A DNA stretch of 64,000 nt from Candidatus Latescibacterota bacterium (GTDB lineage Bacteria > Latescibacterota > UBA2968 > UBA8231). Below, one piece after another: positions 1,203 through 33,091 of the stretch. Every line of letters begins with the position of its first letter. Positions within the stretch are counted from its first letter, which is position 1. The notes beneath the pieces are model-generated. The model made no database searches. It was not told the DNA's origin and was given only the letters and a program-made list of their open reading frames with translations. The stretch lies in NCBI GenBank assembly GCA_965248355.1, contig OZ252098.1, positions 2,368,001 through 2,432,000 of the forward strand, read 5' to 3'. Both the position numbers and the translations under genes were made by a program.

Positions 1203-1574
1203 TTGATCCTCGTCGATACGTCGTCCTGGGTCCACATGCTGCGTACGGGCGGAGACCCCGAGGTTCGGGCCCGGGTCGAAGCCGCCCTGACCGCGGGGCA
1301 AGCCTGCTGGTGTCCGCTGGTGCAGCTCGAGCTGTGGAATGGCGCGTCGGGGGCCAAGGAGCAGAGGGTCTTGAGGGAATTCGCCCGCGTCCTGCCGCTG
1401 CTTCCCATCGACGCGGAGGTCTGGCATCGGGCCTGTGACCTGGCGCGGAGGGCGCGCGCCAAGGGCGTCACGGTTCCGGCCACCGACGTGGTCATCGCCG
1501 CCTGCGCCCGACGCCACGGCGTCGCTCTCGAAACCGCGGATACGGACTTCGAGCTTCTTGCATCGGTGGACTGA
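1203..1574 (+). CDS. vapC: PIN-domain toxin, VapC family
   Basis: MILVDTSSW...ELWNG...DVVIAACA...TADTDF acidic PIN motifs. Confidence 0.9.
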   Translation: MILVDTSSWVHMLRTGGDPEVRARVEAALTAGQACWCPLVQLELWNGASGAKEQRVLREFARVLPLLPIDAEVWHRACDLARRARAKGVTVPATDVVIAACARRHGVALETADTDFELLASVD

Positions 1575-2961: not shown

Positions 2962-4200
2962 TCAGAAGGCGTCGAGCGGCACCGCGTCCACGGACGAGGT
3001 CAGGCGAAAACGCTCGCGGCAGAGGCAGACCAGCAGGCCGGGCCCCGCACGGTCACCGAAGAGGGCCTGGAAGCGCTCGATCCCCTCGACGTGCTCCCGC
3101 CTGGGCGTGGCCGTGAGCTTGGCCTCGATGGGGATCAGCTGCCGGCCGTCGTCGAGGATGAAGTCCACCTCGTGGCCGCCGGCGGTGCGCCAGAAGTGGA
3201 GGCGCGGCACCTCGCCCCGGTGCACGAGCAGCCGGTACAGGGCGCCCAGAACGGCGCTCTCGATCATGGGGCCCGCGGCCATCCCCTGCAGCACCTGGGC
3301 CGCATCGGTGAGGCCGAGGAGGTAGCCGAGGATGCCGGTGTCCAGGAAGAAGATCTTCGGCCGCTTGACCAGCCGCTTGCCGAGATTCGCGTGGTAGGGC
3401 CTCAGGGTCAGCACCTGCCCGCTCGCCTCCAGGACCGAGACCCAGGCCTTGACCGTCTTCGAGGTCACCCCGAGGTCGCGCGCCAGGTCGGAGAAGTTGA
3501 TGAGCGCTCCCGAGCGGGCGGCCAGCGCGTAGAGCACGCGCTGGAAGTCCCCCAGCTCGCCGACGGCCCGCAGGGAGCGGACGTCGCGCTCGAGATAGGT
3601 CTGGATGTAGCTGCTGAGCCACAGGGCGGGTTCGACACGCGCGTCGAGGGCGGGCTCGGGGAAGCCGCCGCGGAGGAGCCGCCCGGCGATCTCCGCCGGG
3701 TCGCCCGCGGAGCCGCTCTCCGTGCGCCCGGCGCCATCCAGCACCTCCCGCCAGGCGGCGTCGGGCTGGGCGCGGCCCCTCGTTTCGGCCAGCGACATCG
3801 ACTGCAGCGAGAGCACCGCGGCGCGCCCGGCGAGGGACTCCGACACACCCCGCATGAGCGGAAAGGCCTGCGAACCCGTGATCACGTAGCGGCCCTTCTC
3901 CGCCCTGTGCTCGTCCACGTCGATCTTGACGGTGTGGAGCATCTCCGGCGCGTACTGGATCTCGTCGAGGATCACGGGAGGGGGAAAGCGCGAGAGCAGC
4001 AGGGGGGAGTCGCCGCGGGCCTGCTCGCGAAGGCCGATGTCGTCCAGGGTGCAGTAGGAGTGGGTCGCCCCGAAGAGGTGGCGCACGAGGGTGGTCTTGC
4101 CGGACTGGCGGGGGCCGGTGAGGACCACGGCCGGGAACTGCTGTGCGGCCCGGGCCAGGACGCGGGCCAGGGTGCGCTCGGTGTACGGCAGGTCGGCCAT
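2962..4200 (-). CDS. AAA_14 ATPase with DUF4143 C-terminal (wHTH + PD-(D/E)xK-like) domain, paralogue 1
   Basis: GPRQSGKTT Walker A, ILDEIQ Walker B, ITGS, ESLAGR, KIFFLDTG, HFWRT...EVDFI...IEAK. Confidence 0.9.
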   Translation of the reverse strand: MADLPYTERTLARVLARAAQQFPAVVLTGPRQSGKTTLVRHLFGATHSYCTLDDIGLREQARGDSPLLLSRFPPPVILDEIQYAPEMLHTVKIDVDEHRAEKGRYVITGSQAFPLMRGVSESLAGRAAVLSLQSMSLAETRGRAQPDAAWREVLDGAGRTESGSAGDPAEIAGRLLRGGFPEPALDARVEPALWLSSYIQTYLERDVRSLRAVGELGDFQRVLYALAARSGALINFSDLARDLGVTSKTVKAWVSVLEASGQVLTLRPYHANLGKRLVKRPKIFFLDTGILGYLLGLTDAAQVLQGMAAGPMIESAVLGALYRLLVHRGEVPRLHFWRTAGGHEVDFILDDGRQLIPIEAKLTATPRREHVEGIERFQALFGDRAGPGLLVCLCRERFRLTSSVDAVPLDAF

Positions 4201-4236
4201 GCCGGGAAACCAAGGCCGCACGACGGTTTGGCGCAA

Positions 4237-7194: not shown

Positions 7195-7279
7195 TCATCC
7201 CTCCGTTTCGTTCGAGATGGCTCTGCCAGCAAAATACAAGGAACATGCTCCCCTCGCACGAGCTTGCCTCCTGAATCGC

Positions 7280-10200
7280 CTACACCGCCACCCTCGTCTC
7301 CGCGTCCCCCGCGGCCAGGGCATTCATGTACGTCAGGATCAGCTCCCGGGTGCGGTAGCGGCCGAAGACGGCCTCGTCCTCGCGGCGGACGATGGGGAAG
7401 GTGTCGAGCACGTACGCAGCGTCCTCCCTGGTGAGGCCGTAGAGGTGGAAGTAGAGGGCGTCCAGGCGTGCCCGGAGGTGGCGGCGTTCCTCCTCGTCCC
7501 AGGGGAAGGGCGGGCCGTCGTGGCCGAGGTCGCGGGCGAAGGGGGCCATGTCGTGGGCAGTGTACGTGAGGCGGAGGACGTGGTCCCGGGCGAGGTCTCG
7601 GGCGGTGGCGGCGCCGAAGCGGCGGTCGTAGTCGACGGGTACAATGACCGGGAACTGTTCGACGGTGTACCAGGTGAGATGAGTCGCCTGAACCTTCTGG
7701 CGAGCCACGTAGTCGAACGCAAAACTGTTGAGATTTGCGAGGAAGCAGGCTGCGCTCTCGGCGTCCATGCCGTCTTCGGATGGAAGAAGGACCGGTAGTG
7801 TATGCCCGCATCCAACTTTGGGAATGGCGGCTGCAATCATGGTGCGGACATTGGTGGACGCGGTGATGTCCTTGAACGCCAGGAGCCATCGTACGCCTTG
7901 GAGGACATCGCTTTCCTGCTGGTTGACCCAGTAGCGGGGACGAGGTGAGAAGGCGGGGTCTTGGTGTTCTTCTTCAAGGGTTCTGTCCGGCTGTCCGGGT
8001 CGAAACAGGTTTCCTTCCCGAGTGGTTATGCTTGCGGCTCGGTGGTCGAATGCCTGCACCATCTTCCCTTCATACAACGGAAGATACAGTTCCTCCCCTC
8101 GCTTCCAGCGATTGCCCTCCACCGGATAGGCACCCTCGGCTTCCAGCTGTTCGGCAGTGCGGAAGAGGTGGGAGTCCGAGGTCATGTTGAAGTGCCCCTG
8201 CATGAACCGAACCGGCCATGCGCGGCGCTCGTCACCTCCCGAACGGTCAACCAGCACCGGCTGGCGTTCGTAGATCCGTCGGGTGACCTCCGCGTCCCTC
8301 CGAGTGCGAAACATAGGTGCGGTTCCGGAATTTGGATTGACTCGAGCGAAGTCCGCAGGGGTCAATGGAAAGCAACGGTTCGCGTCAGCCAGCGTTCCCG
8401 TGTCGGGCAGAAAGAAAGCGCATTCAGTTTGGTCGAACCTCCGTTCATCGCCGCCGAAGACGAGAGCGCAGAACTTGAAGCGGGAATCCACATCCGGGAA
8501 GAAGGGCGGCAGGCCGGTTCCGAGGCGGCGGTTCTCAAAGTCGAATAACCCGCCCACACGTCCGCTGGTCGAGATCGCCTTGAAGAAGTGGGACGCGGTC
8601 TTGTCCGCGTAGATCCCCGACGGGGTCAGGAGACCCACGAATCCGTCCTGCTTGATCAAACCCATGGCACGCTCTACAAACAGCGAGTAGAGATTGATCC
8701 GGCCTTCGCTCAGGAGGGGATACTCGCCACAGGTACGTACGAACACGCGCACTGCTGCAGCCCGGCCCCGCACCGTTTCGTACTCCAGAGCCAGCCTATC
8801 GCCCGCTTCTCTCTTCTGCTTGATCAGTACCTTGCGATCGGCTCCGGTTACAGCCCCGGCTATCTGTTCGTCTCGGCTTGCGAACCACTCCACTTCCGGC
8901 TGCTCTATCTGGTCCCACGGCGGGTTCCCGATGACGGCATCGAATCCCCCTTGCGGCCGACTCTCCTGCCACCGGCGCCACACCCCCGGGAAGGCCGCCT
9001 CCCAGTGCAGGAAGCCCTCCCGGTCGGCCAGGGCGCGGGCCTCGTTCCAGCGCTCGACGAACCGCGGCCAGTCCTTGTCCTTGGGTGGGTCGCCGTCAAG
9101 AGACTCCGGACCCCGGGCCAGCAGCTTGAAGGCCTCCGCCGAGTGCCGGCCGAGAGTGACGTCCAGCGGCCCCTCGAAGGCCGCACGCTCCTTCTTCTTC
9201 ATGCCCGCGGTGAGCCAGCGCCAGCCGCAGAGGATGTCGAGCAGGCCGCGCAGATCGGAGGTCGTCTTCTCCACCCCGCTGAACAACTCCGCCGACGCCT
9301 GCACTTCCGCCACATCGGAGTCGGACATCTCCTCGATGCGCTGCATGCCCTCGGTGGCGTTTTCGGCGCCCTGGATGGCGCTTTGGGCGAACATCCGGGC
9401 CAGGCGGTGCAGGTCCTGCACGGCCTCCGACACCCGCAGGCCGACAAGCGAGTCCCCGCAGCGCAGGTGGTGGTCGAGGAAGGACAGCGGCGCGCCCACG
9501 GTGAAGCTGTGCAGCCACAGGGAGACCTTGGCCAGCTCCACGGTGAGCGGGTTCTTGTCCACGCCATAGATGCAGCGCTTGAGCACCATGCGGCGGATGA
9601 TGGCCTGGTCGGTGAGCTGGCCCTCGTCGAGGACCCAGTCCGATTCTTTCGCGCGCCGGAGGATCTCCTCGCGGATCCCGGCCACCCGCCCGACCAGCGG
9701 CGACGCGTACTCGCCGTCGAGCCACTCCGGGACCGCGGGGACGTACTCGACCAGGTCGGCGATGTAGTCGGAGAGGAAGTCCACGGCCGTGACCAGGAAG
9801 TGGCCGCTGCCCATGGCCGGGTCCAGGACCTTGAGATCCAGCACCGCCTCGGCTGGATCGAGCTTGAGCAACTCGGCTTGGCGCTGGGCCTTCGGCCGGC
9901 GGTCGCTCTTGAGGGCGTCGGCCTTCTCCTCGAAAGCCTTGAGACGCTCCTCGGCCAGCGGCTTCAGCGTGCGCTCGACGATGAGGTCCACCAGCTCCTG
10001 GGGCGTGTAGAAGCTGCCGCTGTCCTTGCGTGCATAGGGGTTGGGGCGGATCTCGATGCCGTCGCCGCCCCGCACCGGCTCGCGCTCGAGGAGGCGTTCG
10101 TAGATGGAGCCGAGCTGCTGCACGGACATGTCGCGGTAGTTGACGAAGTGTCGCTTGCCCTCGGCGTCCCTGGCGTGGCTCAGGTCGTGGATCAGGGGAG

Positions 10201-11341
10201 CCACCTCGGCGTCGGCGAGGCGGACCGTCTCCAGCAGCGGCGCGGCCTCCCGGGCGAAGAGGCCCCCGTTGTAGGGAGGCAGACCGATGGAGGGGTCGCC
10301 CTGGTCGATGATGCGGAAGAGATTGAGGAGGCGGTCGTAGTAGTTGCTGGCCGCCGCCGAGAAGGTGTCGGTCTCCTCCATCCTGCGGGCGACGTCGTCG
10401 CGCACGCGCTTGCGCAGGCCGTAGTCGTCGTAGCGGGAGTCGTTGACCGGCAGCAGCCCCCGGTCCTCGGCGTAGAGCACGAAGAGCAGGCGGTAGAGGA
10501 AGATGAGGGCCGCCTTGTGGACCTCCGGCAGGCTGGCCCCGGAGCCTCTCTTCTGCGCTGCGTCGGCGAGGGCCTGGACGAGCGCCGGGAAGACGCTCTC
10601 GAAGACCACCCCCGACAGATCCTGGGCGACCTGCTCCTCGTAGCGGCGCCCCTCGGCCAGGGCCGCTTCGAGGAAGGACTCGGCGGCGCCTTCTTGGGGC
10701 GTGAAGGATTCGCGGCGGAAGAGCAGGTGGAAGACGCGCAGGTCCTCTTCGCGGCCGGGTTCGAGCAGGTCCGCCAGGTCGGCCTCGAAGTAGCCACTGG
10801 CCCGGGGCCGGGCGCGGTAGTCGTACAGGCGCCAGACGCGGCCGTTGGTGAGCACGCCCCAACGCAGCCGGCTCTCCGACTCGATCTCGGCCGTGGCCAG
10901 GTAGCGGAGGATCTGGCTGTGGGGGGACCGGGCGTGGAACCCGGCCTCCCTGTCGCGCTCGTCCAGGGACAGGCCGAAGCGCTTGCTCTCCTCCAGGGCG
11001 AGGGCGTACCGGGCCCGGGCGCCGGCGTTGCGCTCCGCGGAGGCCCGCTCCTTGGAGCCGGGGTCCGCGAAGAGCAGGTGATCGGGAATGTCCTCGTTGC
11101 CGGCGGTCCTCTGCTGCGGCAGGTAGTCCGCCCACCCGAGCAGCTCCAGAACCGGCCGGATCAGATCCTGCTCGGTGACCGCCTCGTTGGGGTCGGCGGA
11201 ACGGGCGAGGGTTTCGTGGCGCTGGAGGACGGATTCCCGGAAGGCGGAGAAGGCCTGCGGGTCAGCGGCGGATGCCTGCCACTCGGGGGTGGCCCTTATG
11301 CCGTCGGTGAGGAAGTAGTGGGTGAAGAGTTGGCCGGTCAT
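7280..11341 (-). CDS. Type IIG/IIL restriction-modification enzyme (Eco57I-like fused endonuclease + N6-adenine methyltransferase + TRD)
   Basis: N-terminal IPDH...LEESK and WGVLTNGRVWRLY; RKDSGSFYTP; motif I DPAMGSGHFL; motif IV GNPPW; C-terminal TRD (LPLYEGKMV, NLNSFAFDY). Confidence 0.9.
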   Translation of the reverse strand: MTGQLFTHYFLTDGIRATPEWQASAADPQAFSAFRESVLQRHETLARSADPNEAVTEQDLIRPVLELLGWADYLPQQRTAGNEDIPDHLLFADPGSKERASAERNAGARARYALALEESKRFGLSLDERDREAGFHARSPHSQILRYLATAEIESESRLRWGVLTNGRVWRLYDYRARPRASGYFEADLADLLEPGREEDLRVFHLLFRRESFTPQEGAAESFLEAALAEGRRYEEQVAQDLSGVVFESVFPALVQALADAAQKRGSGASLPEVHKAALIFLYRLLFVLYAEDRGLLPVNDSRYDDYGLRKRVRDDVARRMEETDTFSAAASNYYDRLLNLFRIIDQGDPSIGLPPYNGGLFAREAAPLLETVRLADAEVAPLIHDLSHARDAEGKRHFVNYRDMSVQQLGSIYERLLEREPVRGGDGIEIRPNPYARKDSGSFYTPQELVDLIVERTLKPLAEERLKAFEEKADALKSDRRPKAQRQAELLKLDPAEAVLDLKVLDPAMGSGHFLVTAVDFLSDYIADLVEYVPAVPEWLDGEYASPLVGRVAGIREEILRRAKESDWVLDEGQLTDQAIIRRMVLKRCIYGVDKNPLTVELAKVSLWLHSFTVGAPLSFLDHHLRCGDSLVGLRVSEAVQDLHRLARMFAQSAIQGAENATEGMQRIEEMSDSDVAEVQASAELFSGVEKTTSDLRGLLDILCGWRWLTAGMKKKERAAFEGPLDVTLGRHSAEAFKLLARGPESLDGDPPKDKDWPRFVERWNEARALADREGFLHWEAAFPGVWRRWQESRPQGGFDAVIGNPPWDQIEQPEVEWFASRDEQIAGAVTGADRKVLIKQKREAGDRLALEYETVRGRAAAVRVFVRTCGEYPLLSEGRINLYSLFVERAMGLIKQDGFVGLLTPSGIYADKTASHFFKAISTSGRVGGLFDFENRRLGTGLPPFFPDVDSRFKFCALVFGGDERRFDQTECAFFLPDTGTLADANRCFPLTPADFARVNPNSGTAPMFRTRRDAEVTRRIYERQPVLVDRSGGDERRAWPVRFMQGHFNMTSDSHLFRTAEQLEAEGAYPVEGNRWKRGEELYLPLYEGKMVQAFDHRAASITTREGNLFRPGQPDRTLEEEHQDPAFSPRPRYWVNQQESDVLQGVRWLLAFKDITASTNVRTMIAAAIPKVGCGHTLPVLLPSEDGMDAESAACFLANLNSFAFDYVARQKVQATHLTWYTVEQFPVIVPVDYDRRFGAATARDLARDHVLRLTYTAHDMAPFARDLGHDGPPFPWDEEERRHLRARLDALYFHLYGLTREDAAYVLDTFPIVRREDEAVFGRYRTRELILTYMNALAAGDAETRVAV

Positions 11342-11347
11342 GGTGGC

Positions 11348-14300
11348 TCACGCCTCGGGTCGGCTCACGTCGACGACGCAGATCGAGATCTTGCGCGCCT
11401 CGACGGGGGACAGATTCGCTTCCGCTGCCAGCCTCTCGCTCAACTCCTCTGGGTCAGCGGGGCGGCCTCCGGAAGGGGGCGGTTGGGTGTATTCCCTGCC
11501 GAACCAGAATACAAGGTAGATCCCGTAACCGCCGGTGGCCGGGTCAGTGGTGTAGCTGGAGATCAACTGATCTCGAAGGGCGCGCCACAAGTCCCGGTGC
11601 ATGTTCTTCTTGATCTCCACCGGCACCTGGAAGTCCCCGCAGGAAACCCGTATGTCGGCCCTCTTGTCGTTGGCGTACTGCCCCTCGGGCTGAGCGTCGA
11701 CTCCTTCTCCCAGGAGGCGCCGCAGAGCATCGACCAGAGCGTCACGGCACACGTCCTCGTGTCTCGGTCCCGTGGGGCTCCCGTTCGAATCTACATTCCA
11801 GTACTGACGCCAGCCGTCGGTATTGCCCCGGATCTGCAGGGCGAGCGGCACACCTCGAACAGAGCCTTGTGCAGGCGCCTCGGCTCGTCCGCGTGGGCAC
11901 CCAGGGCGCTCAGGTGGCCCCTGGAGCAAGTCCATCAAGAGAGCTGCGAGATCCGCGGCGTTGGCGGGTGTACCGCCGTCCAACGTCTTGCAGATCTGCG
12001 CGATATCGGGATGCTGATAGCCGGCGTCACGGCGGATCACGCGTTGTTCATCCTGCGCCCGCGACAGCACGTCGTGCCACTGTGATAGGGACTCGTCCTC
12101 GAGAAGCCTGGCCAGCGCACCGCTGGCCTCCTTGGCCGGACAGGCAGCGAGGCGCTGGATCAGGCCACTCGCAAGGCGAGAAGCCTCCATTGATGGAGTG
12201 AAGTATCCTCCCTTCCACTGCTCTTCCGGCCCCACGATGCTACCCACAAGGCGCACGAGTAGTTCCAGCGCTGGGCTCCTGAGTCCAGCGGCAACGGATC
12301 TTGCGGAACCTCGAGAGGAGAAGAAGGTCGTCAAGTGCCGCATCCTGCTCTCTCGACCCTCCGAGAACTCTCTCAGCAGATCTTCGTACGCCCCCGGAGA
12401 AACGATGAGGCCCGCTGCCAGCCAGTACACGCGCTGGGAGTCGTTCATGCTCTTCCGGGACAGCTTCGCCTCGATCAATGCCTGCACCGCCTCCCGGTCC
12501 GCATGCTGGATGGCAGCCTTGAGCAGGTGGTCGAGCGCCTCGATCTGCTTCGACTTGCAGCGCGTCGGAAAGGCCCGCAGCAGGGGCAAGCTGGCGTGCC
12601 GGGCCACTTGGACAAGGCCTTTGTCATACGCGAGTTCCGAGATCATTTCGATGTGCTCGCGGCCACTGCGGAACCCGGAGACAGCGGATTCCACCAGCAC
12701 TTGAGCAACCATCTCGGGACGCTCGGACAGGAGCCGCTCGTACCACCGGCAATTGCGGTTCAAGAGGGGCCAGTTGCAGTGGAACGCTATCGCCCGGCAG
12801 ATCAGGTCGTCCTCCAATTGGCATACGTCCGTCGTCTTGGCGGCTTCCTCGATTCCGGCCAGAAACGGTTCGCCGAGATAATGCATCCTGTCCTGCTCCC
12901 TGAGGCGCAGGATTTCCTCCAAGGTCGGAACATCCTCCCGGTGGATCGAGTTCCAGAGGCCGTGGAGGGCCGCATCGATCAGACTGCGTTCGCCTCCGAG
13001 GCTTTCTTCAAGGACCTCGGCTCCCTGCACGTACAGGGTCGCAATGTGGTAGAGCAGCGCGGCTGGTGCCCGGTTCTCGAGGAACGCGGTCTTCCGGGAC
13101 CGGATGTAGTCAAGCTCCTGCTGCCGTTTCTCTTCCTCTTCTTGCCGCAGTTTCTCTTCCTGCTCCAGATGTTCCTGATAGTACCGCGGGGGCGAGAGCA
13201 GTTCTTCCAGCCGCTCTCTCAGCCTCGGGGTCTCCTGCGTCCTTTCCTGCAGGATCTCGAGTGACAGGCCGGCATTGCCGCTGTGTTCGCGATGCGCATG
13301 GACGGCCCAGCCCAACAGGTGCTCCGCAACATGCGGCCTCTCCCCGGCCATGGAGACCGCCTGCTCCAAGCACCAGAGGCCGAAATCAGAGGGCCAGCTT
13401 GCGCCGTACCATCGATGCAAGACGCCAACCATGTGCATACGGGACTCGTCCGATTCCGGGCATCGGCCCATGCCCTCCATGACGATGGCTTTCAGAAGAT
13501 CTGGGCGGTGCTCCAGCCAGGAGCCTATCTGCTGGATGTCCTTCTGGTCGCCCGTCGCGGGCATCGGGCGGTCCTTCGTGAATCCTAGGTCGAGCCAGTC
13601 GTACAGGCGGCCGATGGCCACCTGGTCCCCGTGAGCCTGCAATCCGCGGGCCAGCAGTTTCACGGGAAGGTTCTCCAATCGACTGCTGTTCTCCGCGGTT
13701 GGCCGCAGGCCGCTAAACCGCTCGTTCAGACTATCGAGTAGCTGGGTAACCTGATCATCCGAGGACTTCTCGGGAAGGCCGAGCATGTAGAAGCCGTAGT
13801 ACATGCCGAAGAATGATTCCCTGTCCCTTGTCGCATAGAAGCAGTCCCATACCTCCGAGGGTGACAGGTACCGGGGATAGAGCTCGTATAGCAGGATGCC
13901 TAGTAGTTCGTTGTCGGGATCGGAGACGCGCTCACCGCGAATATCAGCCAGCAGCGATTTCAGTTCGTCGGCTCTATCCCGGCTGTCCGGGGAGTTGTGG
14001 ATGAAGGCATTAAGAGCCGATGTGTTGACACTCGGCCAGCGCGTCTTGTCGCGGACGATCTCCAGCAGAAGCGCGCCAAGGTCCGGGAGAGGTGTGCCCT
14101 CAGACAGAGCTCGCAAGACGAAACCGGTGAACAGCTCATCGTCCCTGCTACGGCCGGGATCCGTCAGGATTTCCCTGAGGACAGGTCCCATCGGCGGCGT
14201 AGCAAGTTCCCCAAAGGCCGCTGCAGAACTCCACAACGAACCAAGCCGGATCCCCTCGCGCTTCAGTGATGCCAGGAGCGCGCGTCTCTCCTCCAAGGAG

Positions 14301-15457
14301 ACCCCCCCGATGTCGCCGTACAGCCCCACGCCAATGGGATCGCGTTCGATGAGGTCCATCCGGGCTACGGGGGATTGAGCCGCGAGCCAGGCGGACAGGC
14401 CTCTCATCTCGGTGACCACGGTGCCATCCTCCCCCTCCATCAGGGCGATGACCCGGCGGGTGGGCAGCCTCTCTTGAATGACCCGGGCCAGATGCCGGGC
14501 GCCGAGGTACTCGGCGATGTGGCGGTGAACCGGGGAGAAGCGGTTGCTGGAAGCGCCCTTGAATAGCTTCGTGGCGAGTGCGAGACGGAGCACCTGACTG
14601 TCGTAGTCACACTGGTCCAGAACGGGATACTCCTCGTCCGGCTGGCCTCGCAACGTGTACCCGGATCCGCCTGAAATCAGCTGTAGTGCGCAGAGGCGTC
14701 CTGCCGCGTCGAGAAGCTGGTCTGGCGGAGGTGGACCGTCCGGCTCCTGCGCAGCTGCATGCTCGTCGTTGTGCTCGCGGACCATCTGACGGCAGGCCAT
14801 CTCGAAGGTCTGCATGCGGCTCTCTGGCCATCCTTCTCCCGCACCGACGACATCGGCCAGCATCTCCAGGGTCTGCGGGTTCGGCAGAAGCCCCTCGACC
14901 CGTCGCTCCTTTGCTGCCTTGATGAATGCATCCGCATCCGGGATGTCGGGCCGGGCATCCAGGATCGAGGCAACATCCCTGTCCGTCAGGGGATCGAGTC
15001 GCAGCACCGTCACGCTGGAATCCGGCGAGACCGCCTCCAGGTGCTTCCGGTCATTCTCCCCCAGCCAGTCCGCCTCCCGGCAGGACAGGCGAAAGCGCGG
15101 CTTGCCCAGCGCATCGAGCCTCCCGCGGATCTCGTGGAAGGGGGTGCGCACGTCCGACGTGCCTGCCCGGATCTCATCGAGTCCGTCGATATAGAGGGTT
15201 TTGCCGCGCCACTCGGGATGGTTCTGTGGGTCGAAGGTCAGGAAGTCACGGGCGGTGACCAGGCACGCCTGCTCCCCGAGCGCCTCACACTCCTCCTCGA
15301 AGGCTGTGGTCTTGCCGGCGCCGGGGTCGCCCACCAGCACATAGGCCGGCGAGTCCCGGAACTCCTCCAGAGGGCGGGACTGACTTTCTTCGTGTTGAGG
15401 CCGCTCGCCATCCTTTTGCGAGATCTCGGTGCAGGTGCGGAGTACTCTCACGCCCAT
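11348..15457 (-). CDS. NACHT/STAND NTPase with helical middle region and C-terminal PD-(D/E)xK nuclease domain
   Basis: LVGDPGAGKTT, LYIDGLDE, RLSCREADW, PVHRHIAEYLGA; C-terminal EDVCRD...KRADIRVS...VPVEIKK...GYGIYLVFWFG; GAGGAGG RBS before ATG 15457. Confidence 0.8.
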   Translation of the reverse strand: MGVRVLRTCTEISQKDGERPQHEESQSRPLEEFRDSPAYVLVGDPGAGKTTAFEEECEALGEQACLVTARDFLTFDPQNHPEWRGKTLYIDGLDEIRAGTSDVRTPFHEIRGRLDALGKPRFRLSCREADWLGENDRKHLEAVSPDSSVTVLRLDPLTDRDVASILDARPDIPDADAFIKAAKERRVEGLLPNPQTLEMLADVVGAGEGWPESRMQTFEMACRQMVREHNDEHAAAQEPDGPPPPDQLLDAAGRLCALQLISGGSGYTLRGQPDEEYPVLDQCDYDSQVLRLALATKLFKGASSNRFSPVHRHIAEYLGARHLARVIQERLPTRRVIALMEGEDGTVVTEMRGLSAWLAAQSPVARMDLIERDPIGVGLYGDIGGVSLEERRALLASLKREGIRLGSLWSSAAAFGELATPPMGPVLREILTDPGRSRDDELFTGFVLRALSEGTPLPDLGALLLEIVRDKTRWPSVNTSALNAFIHNSPDSRDRADELKSLLADIRGERVSDPDNELLGILLYELYPRYLSPSEVWDCFYATRDRESFFGMYYGFYMLGLPEKSSDDQVTQLLDSLNERFSGLRPTAENSSRLENLPVKLLARGLQAHGDQVAIGRLYDWLDLGFTKDRPMPATGDQKDIQQIGSWLEHRPDLLKAIVMEGMGRCPESDESRMHMVGVLHRWYGASWPSDFGLWCLEQAVSMAGERPHVAEHLLGWAVHAHREHSGNAGLSLEILQERTQETPRLRERLEELLSPPRYYQEHLEQEEKLRQEEEEKRQQELDYIRSRKTAFLENRAPAALLYHIATLYVQGAEVLEESLGGERSLIDAALHGLWNSIHREDVPTLEEILRLREQDRMHYLGEPFLAGIEEAAKTTDVCQLEDDLICRAIAFHCNWPLLNRNCRWYERLLSERPEMVAQVLVESAVSGFRSGREHIEMISELAYDKGLVQVARHASLPLLRAFPTRCKSKQIEALDHLLKAAIQHADREAVQALIEAKLSRKSMNDSQRVYWLAAGLIVSPGAYEDLLREFSEGRESRMRHLTTFFSSRGSARSVAAGLRSPALELLVRLVGSIVGPEEQWKGGYFTPSMEASRLASGLIQRLAACPAKEASGALARLLEDESLSQWHDVLSRAQDEQRVIRRDAGYQHPDIAQICKTLDGGTPANAADLAALLMDLLQGPPERPGCPRGRAEAPAQGSVRGVPLALQIRGNTDGWRQYWNVDSNGSPTGPRHEDVCRDALVDALRRLLGEGVDAQPEGQYANDKRADIRVSCGDFQVPVEIKKNMHRDLWRALRDQLISSYTTDPATGGYGIYLVFWFGREYTQPPPSGGRPADPEELSERLAAEANLSPVEARKISICVVDVSRPEA

Positions 15458-16731
15458 GCCTCCTCGAACCACTCGCCGGCGGACGCCGTGAAGAACTCGT
15501 TGAGCGGAACCCCATCCACCCCGACAAGCAGCAGGCCACAGGGACTGAAGCGTTCCTCGAAGGCGGCCATCCCGGGCAGTGGCCTCCTGCCTCGCCGGGC
15601 CATCCCCTCCTCCCCGCTCTTCACCTCGATAGCGACAACCCGGCTCCCCCGCTTCAGCACGAAGTCGACCTCGTTCGACCCGTCCCGCCAGTAGTGGAGG
15701 CGCATGTCGGATTCGGCGGTGTTGAACAGGTGCGCGCCCACGGCGCTCTCAACGATGCGGCCCCAGAAGGTGCGGTCGGCCTGGGCCTCCTCGAAGGAGT
15801 ATCCCGAGCCGGCCGTCATCAGGGCGGTGTTGAGCACGTTGAGCTTGGGGATGGAGGCGCGCCTGGAGACGGGGCTGCCGGTGTATTTCTGCAGGCCGGC
15901 GAGCAGGCCGGCGCCGGCGAGGAGGTCGAGGTAGCGCGCCAGGGTGGTCGTGTTCCCGGCGTCGTGGAGCTGACCCAGCATCTTGGTGTACGAGAGGATC
16001 TGGCCGGAGCAGGCGGCGCCCAGCTCCAAGAGACGCTTGAGGAGGGCCGGCTTGTCCACGCGGATCATGGCCAGGAGGTCGCGTTCGATGTTCGGCTCCA
16101 CGAGGGCGCCGAGGACGTAGCCGCGCCAACGGTCGGGGTCACGGACGAGGGGGGCTGCCCCCGGGTACGCCCCGAAGTAGAGGTACTTCGGCAGGTCGAA
16201 GTCGAAGGCCGAGGACATCTCGGCGAAGGACCAGTGGGTGACGCGGATGGTCTCGAAGCGGCCGGCGAGACTCTCGCTCAGCCCGGACTGCATGAGCAGC
16301 GGCGCCGAGCCCAGGATGACCACGCGCAGCGGGCAGTCGCGGAGGCGGTCGGCGTCCCACAGCCCCTTCACGGTCTCCGACCAGTCCGGGATCTTCTGGA
16401 CCTCGTCGAGGACCAGCACGGCCCCGCGCGGAAACCGTTCCGCTTCGGTCCGGGCAGCTTCCCACTGACGCACCAGCCATTGCGTGTCCCGCTCCCGCTG
16501 CGAGGTCGCAGGGAAGGTCACCGCGGTCTCGTCGTACAGGAAAGGGGGGTCGGCAGGATCCGGTTCGTCGATGGCCAGGTAGCGGCTGGGCAGGTCGGTC
16601 CGCGCCAAGGCCTGGCGGGCGATGGTGGTCTTGCCGGTCTGTCGCGGCCCGAAGAGGGCGATGATGTGGCGGGGCGGCTCGGCCAGCCGCTTGACGAGGG
16701 TGTCGACCTGGGGGCGCTGGAAGGACTCCAT
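15448..16731 (-). CDS. AAA_14 ATPase with DUF4143 domain, paralogue 2
   Basis: GPRQTGKTT, VLDEVQK, ILGSA, ESLAGRF, HYWRDGSNEVDFV...IEVKSG; stop overlaps the NACHT start. Confidence 0.9.
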   Translation of the reverse strand: MESFQRPQVDTLVKRLAEPPRHIIALFGPRQTGKTTIARQALARTDLPSRYLAIDEPDPADPPFLYDETAVTFPATSQRERDTQWLVRQWEAARTEAERFPRGAVLVLDEVQKIPDWSETVKGLWDADRLRDCPLRVVILGSAPLLMQSGLSESLAGRFETIRVTHWSFAEMSSAFDFDLPKYLYFGAYPGAAPLVRDPDRWRGYVLGALVEPNIERDLLAMIRVDKPALLKRLLELGAACSGQILSYTKMLGQLHDAGNTTTLARYLDLLAGAGLLAGLQKYTGSPVSRRASIPKLNVLNTALMTAGSGYSFEEAQADRTFWGRIVESAVGAHLFNTAESDMRLHYWRDGSNEVDFVLKRGSRVVAIEVKSGEEGMARRGRRPLPGMAAFEERFSPCGLLLVGVDGVPLNEFFTASAGEWFEEAWA

Positions 16732-16732
16732 G

Positions 16733-16785
16733 CCCGGGAAATTACGCTACTGAGTAAATTTACTCAATAGCGTACATTCCCCGGG
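16733..16785 (-). promoter_or_regulatory. Long palindrome overlapping a leaderless promoter of AAA_14 paralogue 2
   Basis: TACGCTA-c-TGAGTAAATTTACTCA-a-TAGCGTA with a perfect 16-bp core; the minus strand reads TTGAGT-17-TAATTT-7-ATG. Confidence 0.75.
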
Positions 16786-16839: not shown

Positions 16840-17328
16840 TCACTGGCAGCCGTCGTGAAGCTGCCCCAGCACGCCCTTGAACTCCTGCATCTGCTGCTCC
16901 AGGAGCGGCCACACCTCATCCGCCTCTGCGAGGAGCCCGGTGCTGCGCTCCCAGCGCAACTGTCCGCCGCAGATGTTCAGGAACAGGTGCCGGAAACGCA
17001 GGAACGGCCGCAGCCGTTCCGCGAGGCGGGGGGTCAGGACCCGGGGACGGACCCCCTCGACTTCTTCCTCCATCCGGTTCAGGAGCTGGCTGTGCCAGTC
17101 GCCGCCCCGGGGCAACTCCCCGTCCAGCTCCAACGCGATGCGCTCGAAGACGCGCTCGACCCCCGAGTAGAAGTCGTGCAGGACGCTCGCCACCCCGCGC
17201 ACTTCCAGGCGGCTCGGTATTCCGCCCACGCCTCTCAGATCGCCTCGGGATTCCTCGAGCAGGCGCTCGACCTGCGCCATTTCCCGGTCGATGTCAGCCT
17301 TTAGAAGCAGGAACTTCCGGGCGCCCAT
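16840..17328 (-). CDS. HEPN (HepT-like) toxin
   Basis: LHDFYSGVERVFERIA...LPRGGDWHSQLL...RFRHLFLNICG; downstream of and overlapping the MNT gene. Confidence 0.8.
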   Translation of the reverse strand: MGARKFLLLKADIDREMAQVERLLEESRGDLRGVGGIPSRLEVRGVASVLHDFYSGVERVFERIALELDGELPRGGDWHSQLLNRMEEEVEGVRPRVLTPRLAERLRPFLRFRHLFLNICGGQLRWERSTGLLAEADEVWPLLEQQMQEFKGVLGQLHDGCQ

Positions 17329-17689
17329 GGAGCAGCACTCCTTCCCGTTTCGTGCGGCGGACCAGCTCCGGCGGCGCCTCCTCGAGCAGGATGAGGTCGA
17401 CGTCCCGGCCGGCGATCTCCCCCGCTTCGGACAGGGCCTGGAGGTAGCGGTGCGAGTCGAGGCCCCACACGCAGAGGTCGATGTCGGATCCCTCGTGGAA
17501 GCGCCCGGTGCCCGCGACGGAGCCGATGAGATATACCTCGGAGGCCCCGAACCGCTCCGCCAGCAGCGCGGCACACTCTTTCGCCTTGGCGCGGGCTTCC
17601 GCAAGCGCCCGGTGCAGCTCCGAGGCCTCGCGGCGAAGGCGCTCCCGCCAGGCTTCGATGTAGGAATTGCTGTTCGTGTTCCGGCGCAT
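17294..17689 (-). CDS. Minimal nucleotidyltransferase (MntA-like) antitoxin
   Basis: EVYLIGSVAGTGRFHEGSDIDLCVWG...DVDLI; start taken as ATG 17689. Confidence 0.85.
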   Translation of the reverse strand: MRRNTNSNSYIEAWRERLRREASELHRALAEARAKAKECAALLAERFGASEVYLIGSVAGTGRFHEGSDIDLCVWGLDSHRYLQALSEAGEIAGRDVDLILLEEAPPELVRRTKREGVLLHGRPEVPASKG

Positions 17690-17802
17690 GTCGAAGCGGT
17701 ATGCAAGTGGGGCAGTCTGGCCCTGCAAATCATGGTCAAAAAGGCCCGGGCGCGGTGGAATCGGGCCTGGGCCAGCCAGGGCCAGCAGGCTCATTTTCCT
17801 GA

Positions 17803-18046: not shown

Positions 18047-18409
18047 TCAGGCTTCGCCGGCCGTGCGCGGCTCCACCTCCCGCTCGATCTGGCGCCGGAT
18101 GGTGCGCTCGGCGACCTCGAGATCGTAGCGGGTCTGAAGGTTGATCCAGAAATCAGGCGTCACGCCGAAGTAGCGTCCCAGGCGCAGAGCGGTCTCCGTC
18201 GTGACCTCTCGCTGCCCCAGCACGATCTCCTTCAGCCGGGACCTGGAAACCCTGATCGCCTGGGCGAGGCGGTACACGCTGATCCCCAGCGGCTCCAGAA
18301 ACTCGTCGCACAGAATCTCTCCCGGGTGCACCGGGGGCAGCCGGCGGCCGGACGCCACATCCGAGAGATCGACTTCCCCTCGGTCCAAATTCCCGCGTTT
18401 GATGGGCAT
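18047..18409 (-). CDS. higA: HigA-family addiction module antitoxin (orphan)
   Basis: PPVHPGEIL.DEFLEPLGIS...TALRLGRYFGVTPDFWINLQTRYDL. Confidence 0.9.
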   Translation of the reverse strand: MPIKRGNLDRGEVDLSDVASGRRLPPVHPGEILCDEFLEPLGISVYRLAQAIRVSRSRLKEIVLGQREVTTETALRLGRYFGVTPDFWINLQTRYDLEVAERTIRRQIEREVEPRTAGEA

Positions 18410-31916: not shown

Positions 31917-33091
31917 TAGTGTCCCGTCCGAGAATTAAGAAGAATCAACAAGGGCTGTCCGATGTCGCCGCCACCGTCTCCCGAGCGCGCTGGATCTTGC
32001 GCAGGATGGTCTCGCCGTCGGCCTTCCAGCGGTAGGGTTTGGGGGCCAAGTTCCGCTGCGCCAAGTAGGCTTCGATGTCGCGCACCAACTCCCCGACGCT
32101 GGCAAAGCTGCCGTCCCGAATCACATCCTGCGTCAGCTCGCCGAAGAACCGTTCGACCAAGTTCATCCAGGAGGAACTGGTGGGGGTGAAATGGACATGG
32201 AAGCGCCGATGCCGAGACAACCAATGCTGCACGCTCTCCTCCTTGTGGGGGCCGGCGTTGTCCACGATCAGGTGCAGCGACAGGTTCTTGGGCGTCTCGC
32301 GGTCGATCTGCTTGAGAAAGCGGAGCCATTCGACGTGGGTATGACGCGCCTCCAGACGCGCGATGAGCTTGCCGTCGAGGTAGTTGAGCGCGGCGAACAA
32401 GGTGATCGTACCGTGGCGCTTGTAATCGTGGGTCCGGGTGCGGATGTCGCCGATCCCCAGCGGCAAGCCCGGCTGGGTCCGTTCCAGCGCCTGGCACTGG
32501 CTCTTCTCGTCACAGCACAGCACCAGCGCGCGCTCGGGGGGATCCAGGTAGAGCCCGATCACGTCCCAGAATTTTTCCTCGAAGTGCGGGTCCGTGGAGA
32601 CCTTGAAGGTCTTGGTCAAATGGGGCTTGATGTCGTTGGCCTTCCAGATCCGGTGCACGCTGTCCGGCGACATCCCCGCCGCCTGGGCCATCGAGCGCAC
32701 GCTCCAGCGCGTGCGCGGCTTCGGCGGCTGCGTGACCGCGGTGAGGACCTGCTCGACCTTGTCCGCCGGCAAGCTCGCCGGCCGGCCCCGGCCCTTGGCG
32801 TCGTTCAGTCCCGCCAAACCCTCGCGATCAAAGCGTTGCGACCACTTGTTCACACACGCCACACTGGCGCCCAACTCGGCGGCCACCTGCACCTGCTTGA
32901 TCCCTTCGGCCCGGCGCAGGACGATGGCCGCGCGCAGGCTGTCGCGCTGGGACGCGGAGGGGGCCCTGACGCGACGCTCCAACTCCTGTCGCTCGGACGC
33001 GGTCAACTCAAGGCGGGACACCGGGCGGGCCATGGCCTGAAGATAAGGCCTTGACTCTGTTTTTACAACTCATTTGTCGGACGCGACACTA
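31917..33091 (-). mobile_element. IS630 family insertion sequence
   Basis: Terminal inverted repeats TAGTGTCCCGTCCGAGAATTAAG / TAGTGTCGCGTCCGACAAATGAG; TA within CTAG at both ends; transposase inside. Confidence 0.92.
31945..33033 (-). CDS. IS630 transposase
   Basis: HTH N-terminus; LCCDEKSQCQAL, YKRHGT, LIVDN, FTPTSSSWMNLVERFF (DDE); leaderless promoter TTGTAA-17-TATCTT-6-ATG. Confidence 0.95.
   Translation of the reverse strand: MARPVSRLELTASERQELERRVRAPSASQRDSLRAAIVLRRAEGIKQVQVAAELGASVACVNKWSQRFDREGLAGLNDAKGRGRPASLPADKVEQVLTAVTQPPKPRTRWSVRSMAQAAGMSPDSVHRIWKANDIKPHLTKTFKVSTDPHFEEKFWDVIGLYLDPPERALVLCCDEKSQCQALERTQPGLPLGIGDIRTRTHDYKRHGTITLFAALNYLDGKLIARLEARHTHVEWLRFLKQIDRETPKNLSLHLIVDNAGPHKEESVQHWLSRHRRFHVHFTPTSSSWMNLVERFFGELTQDVIRDGSFASVGELVRDIEAYLAQRNLAPKPYRWKADGETILRKIQRARETVAATSDSPC

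Follow-up and report, generated by a model that had tools for sequence, protein, structure and literature searches.

A putative Erebus/Avs10-type gene pair with a coupled AAA_14-DUF4143 ATPase, a conserved palindrome and an appended type IIG restriction-modification gene

EruA is a NACHT-domain antiphage protein that we take to be the protein of the Erebus system, as HyoA is presumably that of Hypnos, and the original Erebus report is said to be that of van den Berg et al. 2024. A literature search on the names EruA and HyoA returned nothing relevant. In the accessible passages of a 2026 Nature paper (PMC13581612), Erebus, Hypnos and bNACHT64 are grouped as Avs10, whose sensor binds the HK97-fold major capsid protein of phages and triggers cell death. 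PDC-S01, a family of AAA_14-DUF4143 proteins, is placed by the available part of another paper (PMC12988326) among the commonest candidate defence genes in prokaryotes, most such candidates awaiting validation. Here we analyse a 64,000-nt stretch of contig OZ252098.1 (the window; coordinates below are window positions, and L numbers denote compared loci), in which a PDC-S01-type ATPase gene, an EruA-type NACHT gene and a type IIG restriction-modification (R-M) gene follow one another on the minus strand at 7280-16731. We consider it fairly probable that the locus is a two-gene abortive-infection module of the Erebus/Avs10 type, governed by an operator of the ATPase family, to which the type IIG R-M gene has been appended.

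Gene order, coupling and the EruA-type NACHT protein

The window lies within one contig of 5.5 Mb with a G+C content of about 70%, and the three open reading frames (ORFs), together with the elements around them and the domains of the NACHT protein, are as follows.

16743-16774, minus strand: putative promoter/operator region, a 32-bp near-palindrome (TACGCTA TTGAGTAAATTTACTCAG TAGCGTA)
15448-16731, minus strand: ATPase gene, 427 amino acids, first gene of the unit
11348-15451, minus strand: NACHT gene, 1367 amino acids from the GTG at 15451 (longest frame 11348-15472)
14252-15451, minus strand: NACHT/STAND NTPase module of that gene, residues 1-400, with Walker A GDPGAGKTT and Walker B IDGLDE
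11852-14251, minus strand: presumed sensor, residues 401-1200, fast-evolving, of lower G+C and covered by the EruA profile
11348-11851, minus strand: predicted C-terminal PD-(D/E)xK nuclease, residues 1201-1367 plus stop, with E1232, D1266, E1279-x-K1281 and Q1295
7280-11341, minus strand: type IIG R-M gene, 1353 amino acids, last gene of the unit here
7244-7260, minus strand: terminator-like hairpin 20 nt past the R-M stop, a consensus match alone

The TGA stop of the ATPase gene lies at 15450-15448, and the in-frame NACHT starts available are ATG 15457 and GTG 15451, the latter giving a GTGA overlap. Two points make GTG 15451 the likelier start: 32 of 34 relatives have ATGA or GTGA here, preceded by a Shine-Dalgarno-like GAGGA(A), and the database copy of the NACHT protein, at 1367 amino acids, fits this codon. 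The overlap seen in a sequence-only reading of this DNA, made earlier and using ATG 15457, holds with either codon. Since the ATGA/GTGA junction sits behind the conserved GAGGA(A) stretch in 32 of the 34 relatives, the ATPase and NACHT genes are translationally coupled. At the other end of the NACHT gene, the stop (11350-11348) is followed by a 6-nt spacer (gccacc) and then by the R-M ATG at 11341, as that reading had also noted. No terminator-like site was found on the minus strand within 7280-16731, and one lies just past the R-M stop; the scan yielded three such sites, fewer than in shuffled sequences (mean 5.3). The earlier view that the three genes probably share a transcript holds, in that they form one probable transcription unit with a palindromic control site.

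The NACHT protein matches the NCBIfam model NF058535, 'NACHT domain-containing antiphage protein EruA', at 919.9 bits (E 3.7e-276), and the profile is matched end to end in one open frame (positions 10-1158 and 1166-1318 of 1318). Because the full profile is covered at a score below the curated equivalog cut-off of 1000 bits, the protein falls, by profile, inside the broad EruA family but is not the NCBI equivalog. NACHT relatives whose genes stand beside the same type of ATPase gene, hereafter the linked clade, score 740-987 bits on this profile; a stand-alone homologue from a Bradyrhizobium plasmid reaches 1189.6 bits, above the cut-off, and those from Vibrio and Pantoea plasmids about 775 bits each. 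More than 2,300 homologues exist, and among the 120 listed the length is nearly constant at about 1340-1375 amino acids. PF28130 is the precomputed Pfam entry given for these homologues; our local Pfam scan assigned no family to the NACHT protein, and the NACHT model had no match at E<=0.1.

The order of domains, with the NTPase N-terminal and the nuclease at the extreme C-terminus, was read correctly from the sequence and is reproduced by the motifs and an AlphaFold2 (AF2) model of the C-terminal domain. The sequence-only reading took this inverted architecture to be new unless a described system proved to share it, and one does: EruA of the Erebus system, grouped under Avs10, has a profile that the protein matches from end to end. 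In the NTPase module, G44, G46, K47, D89, G90, D92 and E93 are invariant among 26 NACHT sequences, and IDGLDE fits the NACHT Walker B signature D[GAS]hDE given in the accessible part of the Kibby preprint, a part that does not contain the name 'bNACHT64'. A structure-atlas look-up of the N-terminus returned generic STAND clusters only, and one of residues 420-1150 unnamed clusters only.

In the C-terminal domain, E1232, D1266, E1279, K1281 and Q1295 are invariant among 26-28 sequences. The AF2 model of this domain (mean predicted local distance difference test, pLDDT, 80) aligns with Can2 with a Z of 8.0 and a root-mean-square deviation of 2.8 Å over 114 residues, and comparison with Can2, PaqCI, OkrAI, BglII, McrC and NucC gives a restriction-endonuclease fold at Z 6.3-8.0. 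Plain Foldseek with the same model gave no match at E<=0.001, a sequence-profile search of the domain against solved structures gave none, and such a search with the full NACHT alignment gave chance-level matches only. The NACHT C-terminus is thus modelled as a PD-(D/E)xK nuclease fold, an assignment that draws on the second structural aligner together with the motif.

The middle of the protein appears, from the alignments, to evolve fast. Compared with L001 and L004, two syntenic loci, residues 1-400 are 72-92% identical (in 50-residue blocks) and the last 120 residues 72-84%, while over residues 400-1150 identity is mostly 40-60%, in a pattern that is mosaic between loci. The whole NACHT protein is 66-67% identical to those of L001/L004, against 77-87% for flanking genes, a range also given as 85-92%, 86% for the ATPase, 80-86% for the MNT-HepT pair described below and 92% for the R-M enzyme. 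The lower G+C over the sensor part, noticed from the sequence at the outset, is real (0.61-0.64 versus about 0.70).

The partner ATPase and its palindromic control site

The first gene of the unit encodes a protein with the Pfam domains AAA_14 (E 7e-22) and DUF4143 (E 1.2e-26), both above cut-offs. In the PADLOC run that the sequence-only reading had proposed, it matches PDLC04791 (PDC-S01) at E 3.2e-158, with residues 4-422 on positions 2-394/395, and the R-M protein matches REase_MTase_IIG and DrmMI. Among 33 ATPase sequences, the Walker A stretch G28-T36, D109-E110 and E369-V-K371 are invariant and D356 nearly so. The structural model has an AAA+ fold in the N-terminal half and a middle part of low confidence, and a search of the ATPase sequence profile against solved structures gave chance-level matches only. 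A 2012 survey (PMC3424549), the only work that a literature search on DUF4143, AAA_14 and COG1373 turned up, places DUF4143 among the PD-(D/E)XK families and gives its function as unknown. With motifs in DUF4143, in the NACHT C-terminus and in the R-M N-terminus, the three PD-(D/E)xK-type domains claimed for this operon from its sequence are all found.

The pairing of the two genes was followed in 36 loci, comprising the window, nine loci drawn from a species-genome collection, and 26 taken from genomes within the same phylum. The ATPase gene stands directly upstream of the NACHT gene in 35 of them, including L111, whose ATPase is 5'-truncated, and the linked loci span four phyla, with records titled Latescibacterota, Gemmatimonadota, Nitrospirales and Acidimicrobiia. 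The exception is L087, where the NACHT protein is 35% identical and a paralogous ATPase gene follows 1.7 kb downstream, with a DUF1828/1829 gene in between; the order in this locus (G052:C1:2626027-2644922) is an MmeI-type IIG enzyme, a 467-residue protein without family, the EruA-like NACHT protein, DUF1828/1829 and an ATPase of the unlinked clade. Within the phylum, ATPase matches are bimodal: those beside a NACHT gene are at least 67% identical, and those elsewhere 54-63%. The 12 unlinked paralogues stand before a type I HsdR gene plus a YgjP peptidase gene, beside DUF1828/1829, or among housekeeping genes. In a maximum-likelihood tree, the 35 linked and 12 unlinked ATPases are parted by one branch with support 100/100, the groups being defined by linkage itself and the unlinked rows coming from one phylum. 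An Actinomycetota sample of 401 genomes gave one match, in the centre genome itself. In the literature searched, neither the ATPase-NACHT pairing nor the operator was found, and DUF4143 and NACHT occur in one preprint, not together. The accessible text of PMC13581612 contains neither 'DUF4143' nor 'AAA_14', and the accessible parts of its seven supplements lack 'Avs10', 'Erebus' and 'DUF4143'.

Decayed copies of the pair were also seen. In L113 (G061) the NACHT protein has 1185 amino acids and has lost the nuclease domain, in L112 (G102) the NACHT gene is split into parts of 210 and 1203 amino acids, and L111 (the second copy in G103) has lost the palindrome along with the 5' end of its ATPase gene. 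The window's own genome holds further EruA-like pieces outside the window: one copy split into two or more pieces, with a TGA in frame (L011/L013, G000:C1:2981223-2985460; profile positions 237-602 and 784-1318) and a separate, 50% identical N-terminal fragment (L012, G000:C1:2834442-2835134; positions 11-238). No linked-clade ATPase was found elsewhere in this genome.

Upstream of the ATPase gene, the near-palindrome contains a perfect 16-bp palindromic core, TGAGTAAATTTACTCA, at 16751-16766. The near-palindrome ends 11 nt ahead of the ATPase ATG, with no Shine-Dalgarno sequence after it. Allowing up to one mismatch, the 5.5-Mb genome contains a single copy of the core and none of the reversed control pattern. 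A regular expression for the core matches in 30 of 34 related linked loci, across phyla, and in 23 of these the site ends 18-20 nt before the start codon; in linked loci a TA-rich hexamer (TAATTT or TAAATT) comes next, again with no Shine-Dalgarno sequence. By eye, 11 of the 12 unlinked ATPase paralogues carry the core as well. Among the metagenome matches listed, genes for ATPases at least 39% identical to that of the window have at least two half-sites in 41 of 47 cases, versus 38 of 1580 background windows. In the subfamily of 34-38% identity, eight of the 13 matches listed have GAATAAT-N-ATT and only one has the TGAGTA type. The operator type thus changes with the ATPase subfamily, as far as upstream sequences tell. 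Members of this 34-38% subfamily in metagenome loci L176 and L179-L187 have a palindrome of their own, CGAATAAT-N-ATTCG, adjoining the ATG, and a CTAGTA-type palindrome occurs in the metagenome loci L159, L168 and L169.

Because the cis element tracks the protein subfamily, the usual mark of autoregulation, we propose that the ATPase binds the palindrome and autoregulates the operon. From the TA-rich hexamer and the lack of a Shine-Dalgarno sequence before the start codon, we infer that the site gives rise to a leaderless transcript.

The type IIG gene and the surroundings of the locus

The third gene appears, from its motifs and family matches, to encode a type IIG enzyme with an N-terminal nuclease, an N6-adenine methyltransferase of the Eco57I/MmeI type and a variable recognition part. 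The Pfam family Eco57I is matched at 70.8 bits (cut-off 25.3; E 1.9e-19), PADLOC REase_MTase_IIG at E 1.5e-71 over residues 50-418, and PADLOC DrmMI at 330 bits (E 6.6e-99) over the methylase part; Pfam MmeI matches are weak (E 4e-4 to 0.035, all below cut-offs). The N-terminal PDHLLF...EESK motif is kept in the seven R-M enzymes compared, with H replaced by N in one, and residues of about 1100-1200, the target-recognition part, are 36-44% identical between loci, the L004 enzyme being 88% identical. DISARM, whose class 1 joins DrmMI with DrmA, DrmB and DrmC or DrmD, was considered and rejected, since a scan of the neighbouring genes against Pfam alone named neither a helicase nor a phospholipase D nor any other domain of the DISARM type; a BREX reading of the R-M gene was rejected because partner genes are missing among the neighbours.

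Of the 36 loci, 7 have a similar (P0003-like) R-M gene no more than about 9 kb downstream, with one further 172-residue fragment, and all of these belong to one taxonomic family; the gene was found in none of the five loci of other phyla and in none from the second family sampled. It is directly adjacent to the NACHT gene in four loci, at 6 nt in the window, L002 and L003 and at 39 nt in L112, and is set apart from it in L004, L090 and L091 by a DUF5678 ORF, Fic or HigBA. By its distribution, the R-M gene is variable cargo. The gene-neighbourhood check suggested with the sequence-only reading therefore came out against the R-M linkage that it stressed and in favour of the ATPase linkage (35 of 36 loci) that it underrated. 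Short duplicated fragments of the R-M C-terminus were noticed downstream of the full gene in L003 (22253-22636) and L004 (19404-19884), beside a SIR2_2-domain gene of about 1270 codons (L003 18317-22144, L004 19903-23718); these fragments are perhaps left over from earlier R-M alleles, or else are spare segments of the recognition domain.

Upstream of the palindrome, in the same orientation and as a separate unit, lies a toxin-antitoxin pair.

16840-17794, minus strand: MNT plus HepT-like toxin-antitoxin pair

The MNT gene is at 17294-17794 (Pfam Polbeta/NTP_transf_2) and the HepT-like gene at 16840-17328 (HepT-like_2, E 5.7e-30), and the pair is kept at the same site in L001 and L004, which come from genomes of the same genus. 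These two loci share the window's chromosomal site, with an alpha-2-macroglobulin gene on one side and WD40-repeat genes on the other; their genomes belong to the same genus as that of the window, yet the public titles differ (Gemmatimonadaceae versus Candidatus Latescibacterota). On the far side of the R-M gene, a Pfam scan of the flanking genes found a WD40/Big_1 protein and an oxidoreductase, and among these flanking genes it revealed no integrase or transfer gene beside the islet. A PIN-domain gene (1203-1574, plus strand) and an XRE-type HTH_3 gene (18047-18409, minus strand) border the islet; together with the MNT-HepT genes they enrich this stretch in toxin-antitoxin-like genes. A second AAA_14 plus DUF4143 ATPase gene (2962-4236, minus strand, 424 amino acids) lies 3 kb beyond the R-M gene; its product is only 27% identical to the operon ATPase, and the TGAGTA palindrome of the operon has no second copy in the genome. 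Some 14 kb from the islet, at 31945-33033 on the minus strand, the window also holds a DDE_3/HTH transposase gene.

Proposed mechanism, rival readings and known systems

We propose that the locus is a compact anti-phage islet, in an uncultured bacterium of high G+C, whose core consists of an AAA_14-DUF4143 ATPase-nuclease and a translationally coupled NLR-like (NLR, nucleotide-binding leucine-rich repeat) protein of the EruA type. By analogy with the tested Avs10 members, the sensor would bind a conserved phage structural protein, in their case the major capsid protein. Such binding would trigger the release of the NACHT switch and let the protein oligomerise, whereupon the clustered nuclease domains would cut DNA and abort the infection. 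The conserved palindromic promoter/operator, which belongs to the ATPase gene family, may drive the module, probably through a leaderless mRNA. The ATPase would bind the palindrome with the helical region that separates its ATPase and nuclease parts, and such autoregulation would hold the toxic NLR nuclease at a low level until it is needed. The ATPase may also touch the NACHT protein physically and may double as a second effector; a predicted complex of the ATPase with NACHT residues 1-400 and 1200-1367 scored 0.00, which is neutral for either view. The R-M cargo would have come under the same promoter in this genome and would add a first, DNA-level barrier, and the compared loci give no evidence that the NLR depends on the R-M gene.

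Several observations weigh against this proposal. The score of the NACHT protein stays below the EruA cut-off, as does that of every EruA match in the phylum (none of 168 genomes above it, best 986.9 bits), and its functional equivalence with Erebus/Avs10 members is assumed. Residues 210-298 of the ATPase, the presumed DNA-binding middle, have a pLDDT under 50. The single upstream promoter/operator claimed in the sequence-only reading stands as regards the palindromic site; a simple scan found no sigma-70 consensus promoter. The tree, moreover, compares groups that linkage itself defines. The existence of stand-alone EruA homologues means that this NLR type generally needs no partner: among eight EruA-like loci on proteobacterial plasmids, none has an ATPase of this clade, seven have the EruA-type gene alone, and in the eighth, from Paracoccus, a distinct DUF4143 gene follows directly downstream. 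Conversely, an EruA-like gene was found in none of 80 metagenome loci of ATPase relatives among the matches listed, which are 24-60% identical except for an 81-residue fragment at 70% (L188); linked-clade ATPases are absent among those matches, and members may lie beyond them. The ATPase family is thus mostly without NACHT and may be an independent defence gene. The stand-alone EruA genes and the NACHT-free ATPase loci favour the main rival of our proposal, namely that two or three independent defence systems share a transcript, the ATPase being a self-sufficient PDC-S01 system, the NACHT protein a self-sufficient Erebus-type one and the R-M enzyme a third, and that their coupling reflects compaction of the islet. 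It would also agree with PDC-S01 being catalogued as a single-gene candidate and as very common, in the accessible part of PMC12988326, with the 12 NACHT-free contexts in the same phylum, and with the palindromic site, which goes with the ATPase family whether linked or not. Against independent systems, 35 of 36 loci, spread over four phyla, retain the two genes side by side with overlapping stop and start, even where identity falls to 37% for NACHT and 54% for the ATPase; a 100/100 branch sets the linked ATPases on one side, as expected of a dedicated partner; and the other neighbours (R-M, HigBA, Fic, SIR2-like) vary around a constant pair. We regard this rival as unlikely, though far from negligible. 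Taken together, the absence of the pairing from the eight plasmid and 80 metagenome loci leads us to view the ATPase family as independent as a whole, with one clade attached to this NACHT clade.

The remaining alternatives seem to us very improbable. In one of them, the NLR module would watch over the R-M enzyme or act as its backup, for instance by sensing phage anti-restriction factors, so that all three genes would form one system, much as the sequence-only reading had suggested. The close spacing behind the NACHT stop in the window, L002, L003 and L112 would fit this, as would the different MmeI-type IIG enzyme two genes upstream of the divergent EruA-like gene in L087. The confinement of the R-M gene to 7 of 36 loci and to one family, and the genes that intervene in L004, L090 and L091, argue the other way; the identities between the window and L004 are discordant (92% for R-M versus 67% for NACHT), which indicates separate histories; and the tested Avs10 members answer to capsid protein, not to anti-restriction factors, according to the available passages of PMC13581612. 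Just as little credence goes to a pair without an immune role, for which the family name would mislead. Such genes might serve a mobile island for addiction or exclusion, or the ATPase might work in DNA repair or regulation together with a nuclease-bearing partner. The sub-threshold EruA score and the toxin-antitoxin genes on the flank agree with this reading. On the other hand, the match to the antiphage family is full-length, the sensor-like region is fast-diverging and mosaic, as in an arms race, no integrase or transfer genes were seen beside the islet in the window, and R-M, HepT-MNT, HigBA, Fic and SIR2-like genes make up the kind of setting usual for defence islands, which supports the anti-phage setting originally suggested for this locus.

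More generally, AAA_14-DUF4143 proteins might be ATP-dependent autoregulators that act on subfamily-specific palindromes over leaderless promoters, one clade having become an obligate gatekeeper of an NLR and perhaps its co-effector, a generalisation that we offer as possible but doubtful. If this gatekeeper role is real, the pair would amount to a bacterial NLR system of two components, in which a second ATPase licenses expression or firing, and cargo behind the ATPase gene, here the type IIG R-M gene, would come under the same control. Confirmation of the module itself would establish a clade of Erebus/Avs10-type receptors, in at least four phyla, that never occurs without a specific ATPase-nuclease. 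Avs proteins are published as single-protein sensors, as far as the accessible passages show, so a required partner would alter how they are cloned and tested, and NACHT-only constructs of this clade might fail or prove toxic. For PDC-S01, the subfamily-specific palindromes provide a concrete and cheap hypothesis, namely autoregulation by its own product.

Compared with Erebus/EruA, the NACHT protein shares the profile from end to end, the size, the order of NACHT, long middle and C-terminal nuclease-like domain, and the defence-island setting. It differs in that the whole sampled clade scores below 1000 bits (best 987) and in that this clade comes with a coupled AAA_14-DUF4143 ATPase, unlike the plasmid homologue that passes the cut-off. 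The ATPase shares with PDC-S01 the full-length PDLC04791 match, the same two Pfam domains and the family-wide upstream palindrome, whereas it does not stand as a single gene, its clade being fixed before an EruA-type NACHT gene in 35 of 36 loci. The third gene resembles type IIG enzymes of the Eco57I/MmeI kind in its predicted single polypeptide with a D...ExK nuclease motif, a methyltransferase and a variable recognition part, but its MmeI matches are weak and its best PADLOC match is the DISARM methylase DrmMI. A likeness in possible mode of action can be seen with the controller (C) proteins of R-M systems, which have a C-box palindrome just upstream of their own gene, overlapping the promoter, with little or no leader. 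As with the C-box, a subfamily-specific palindrome precedes the regulator's own gene here, but the presumed binder is a 427-residue ATPase-nuclease rather than a small helix-turn-helix protein. The NLR architecture of the locus is thus already known, and its less ordinary points are the dedicated partner ATPase-nuclease and the conserved palindrome.

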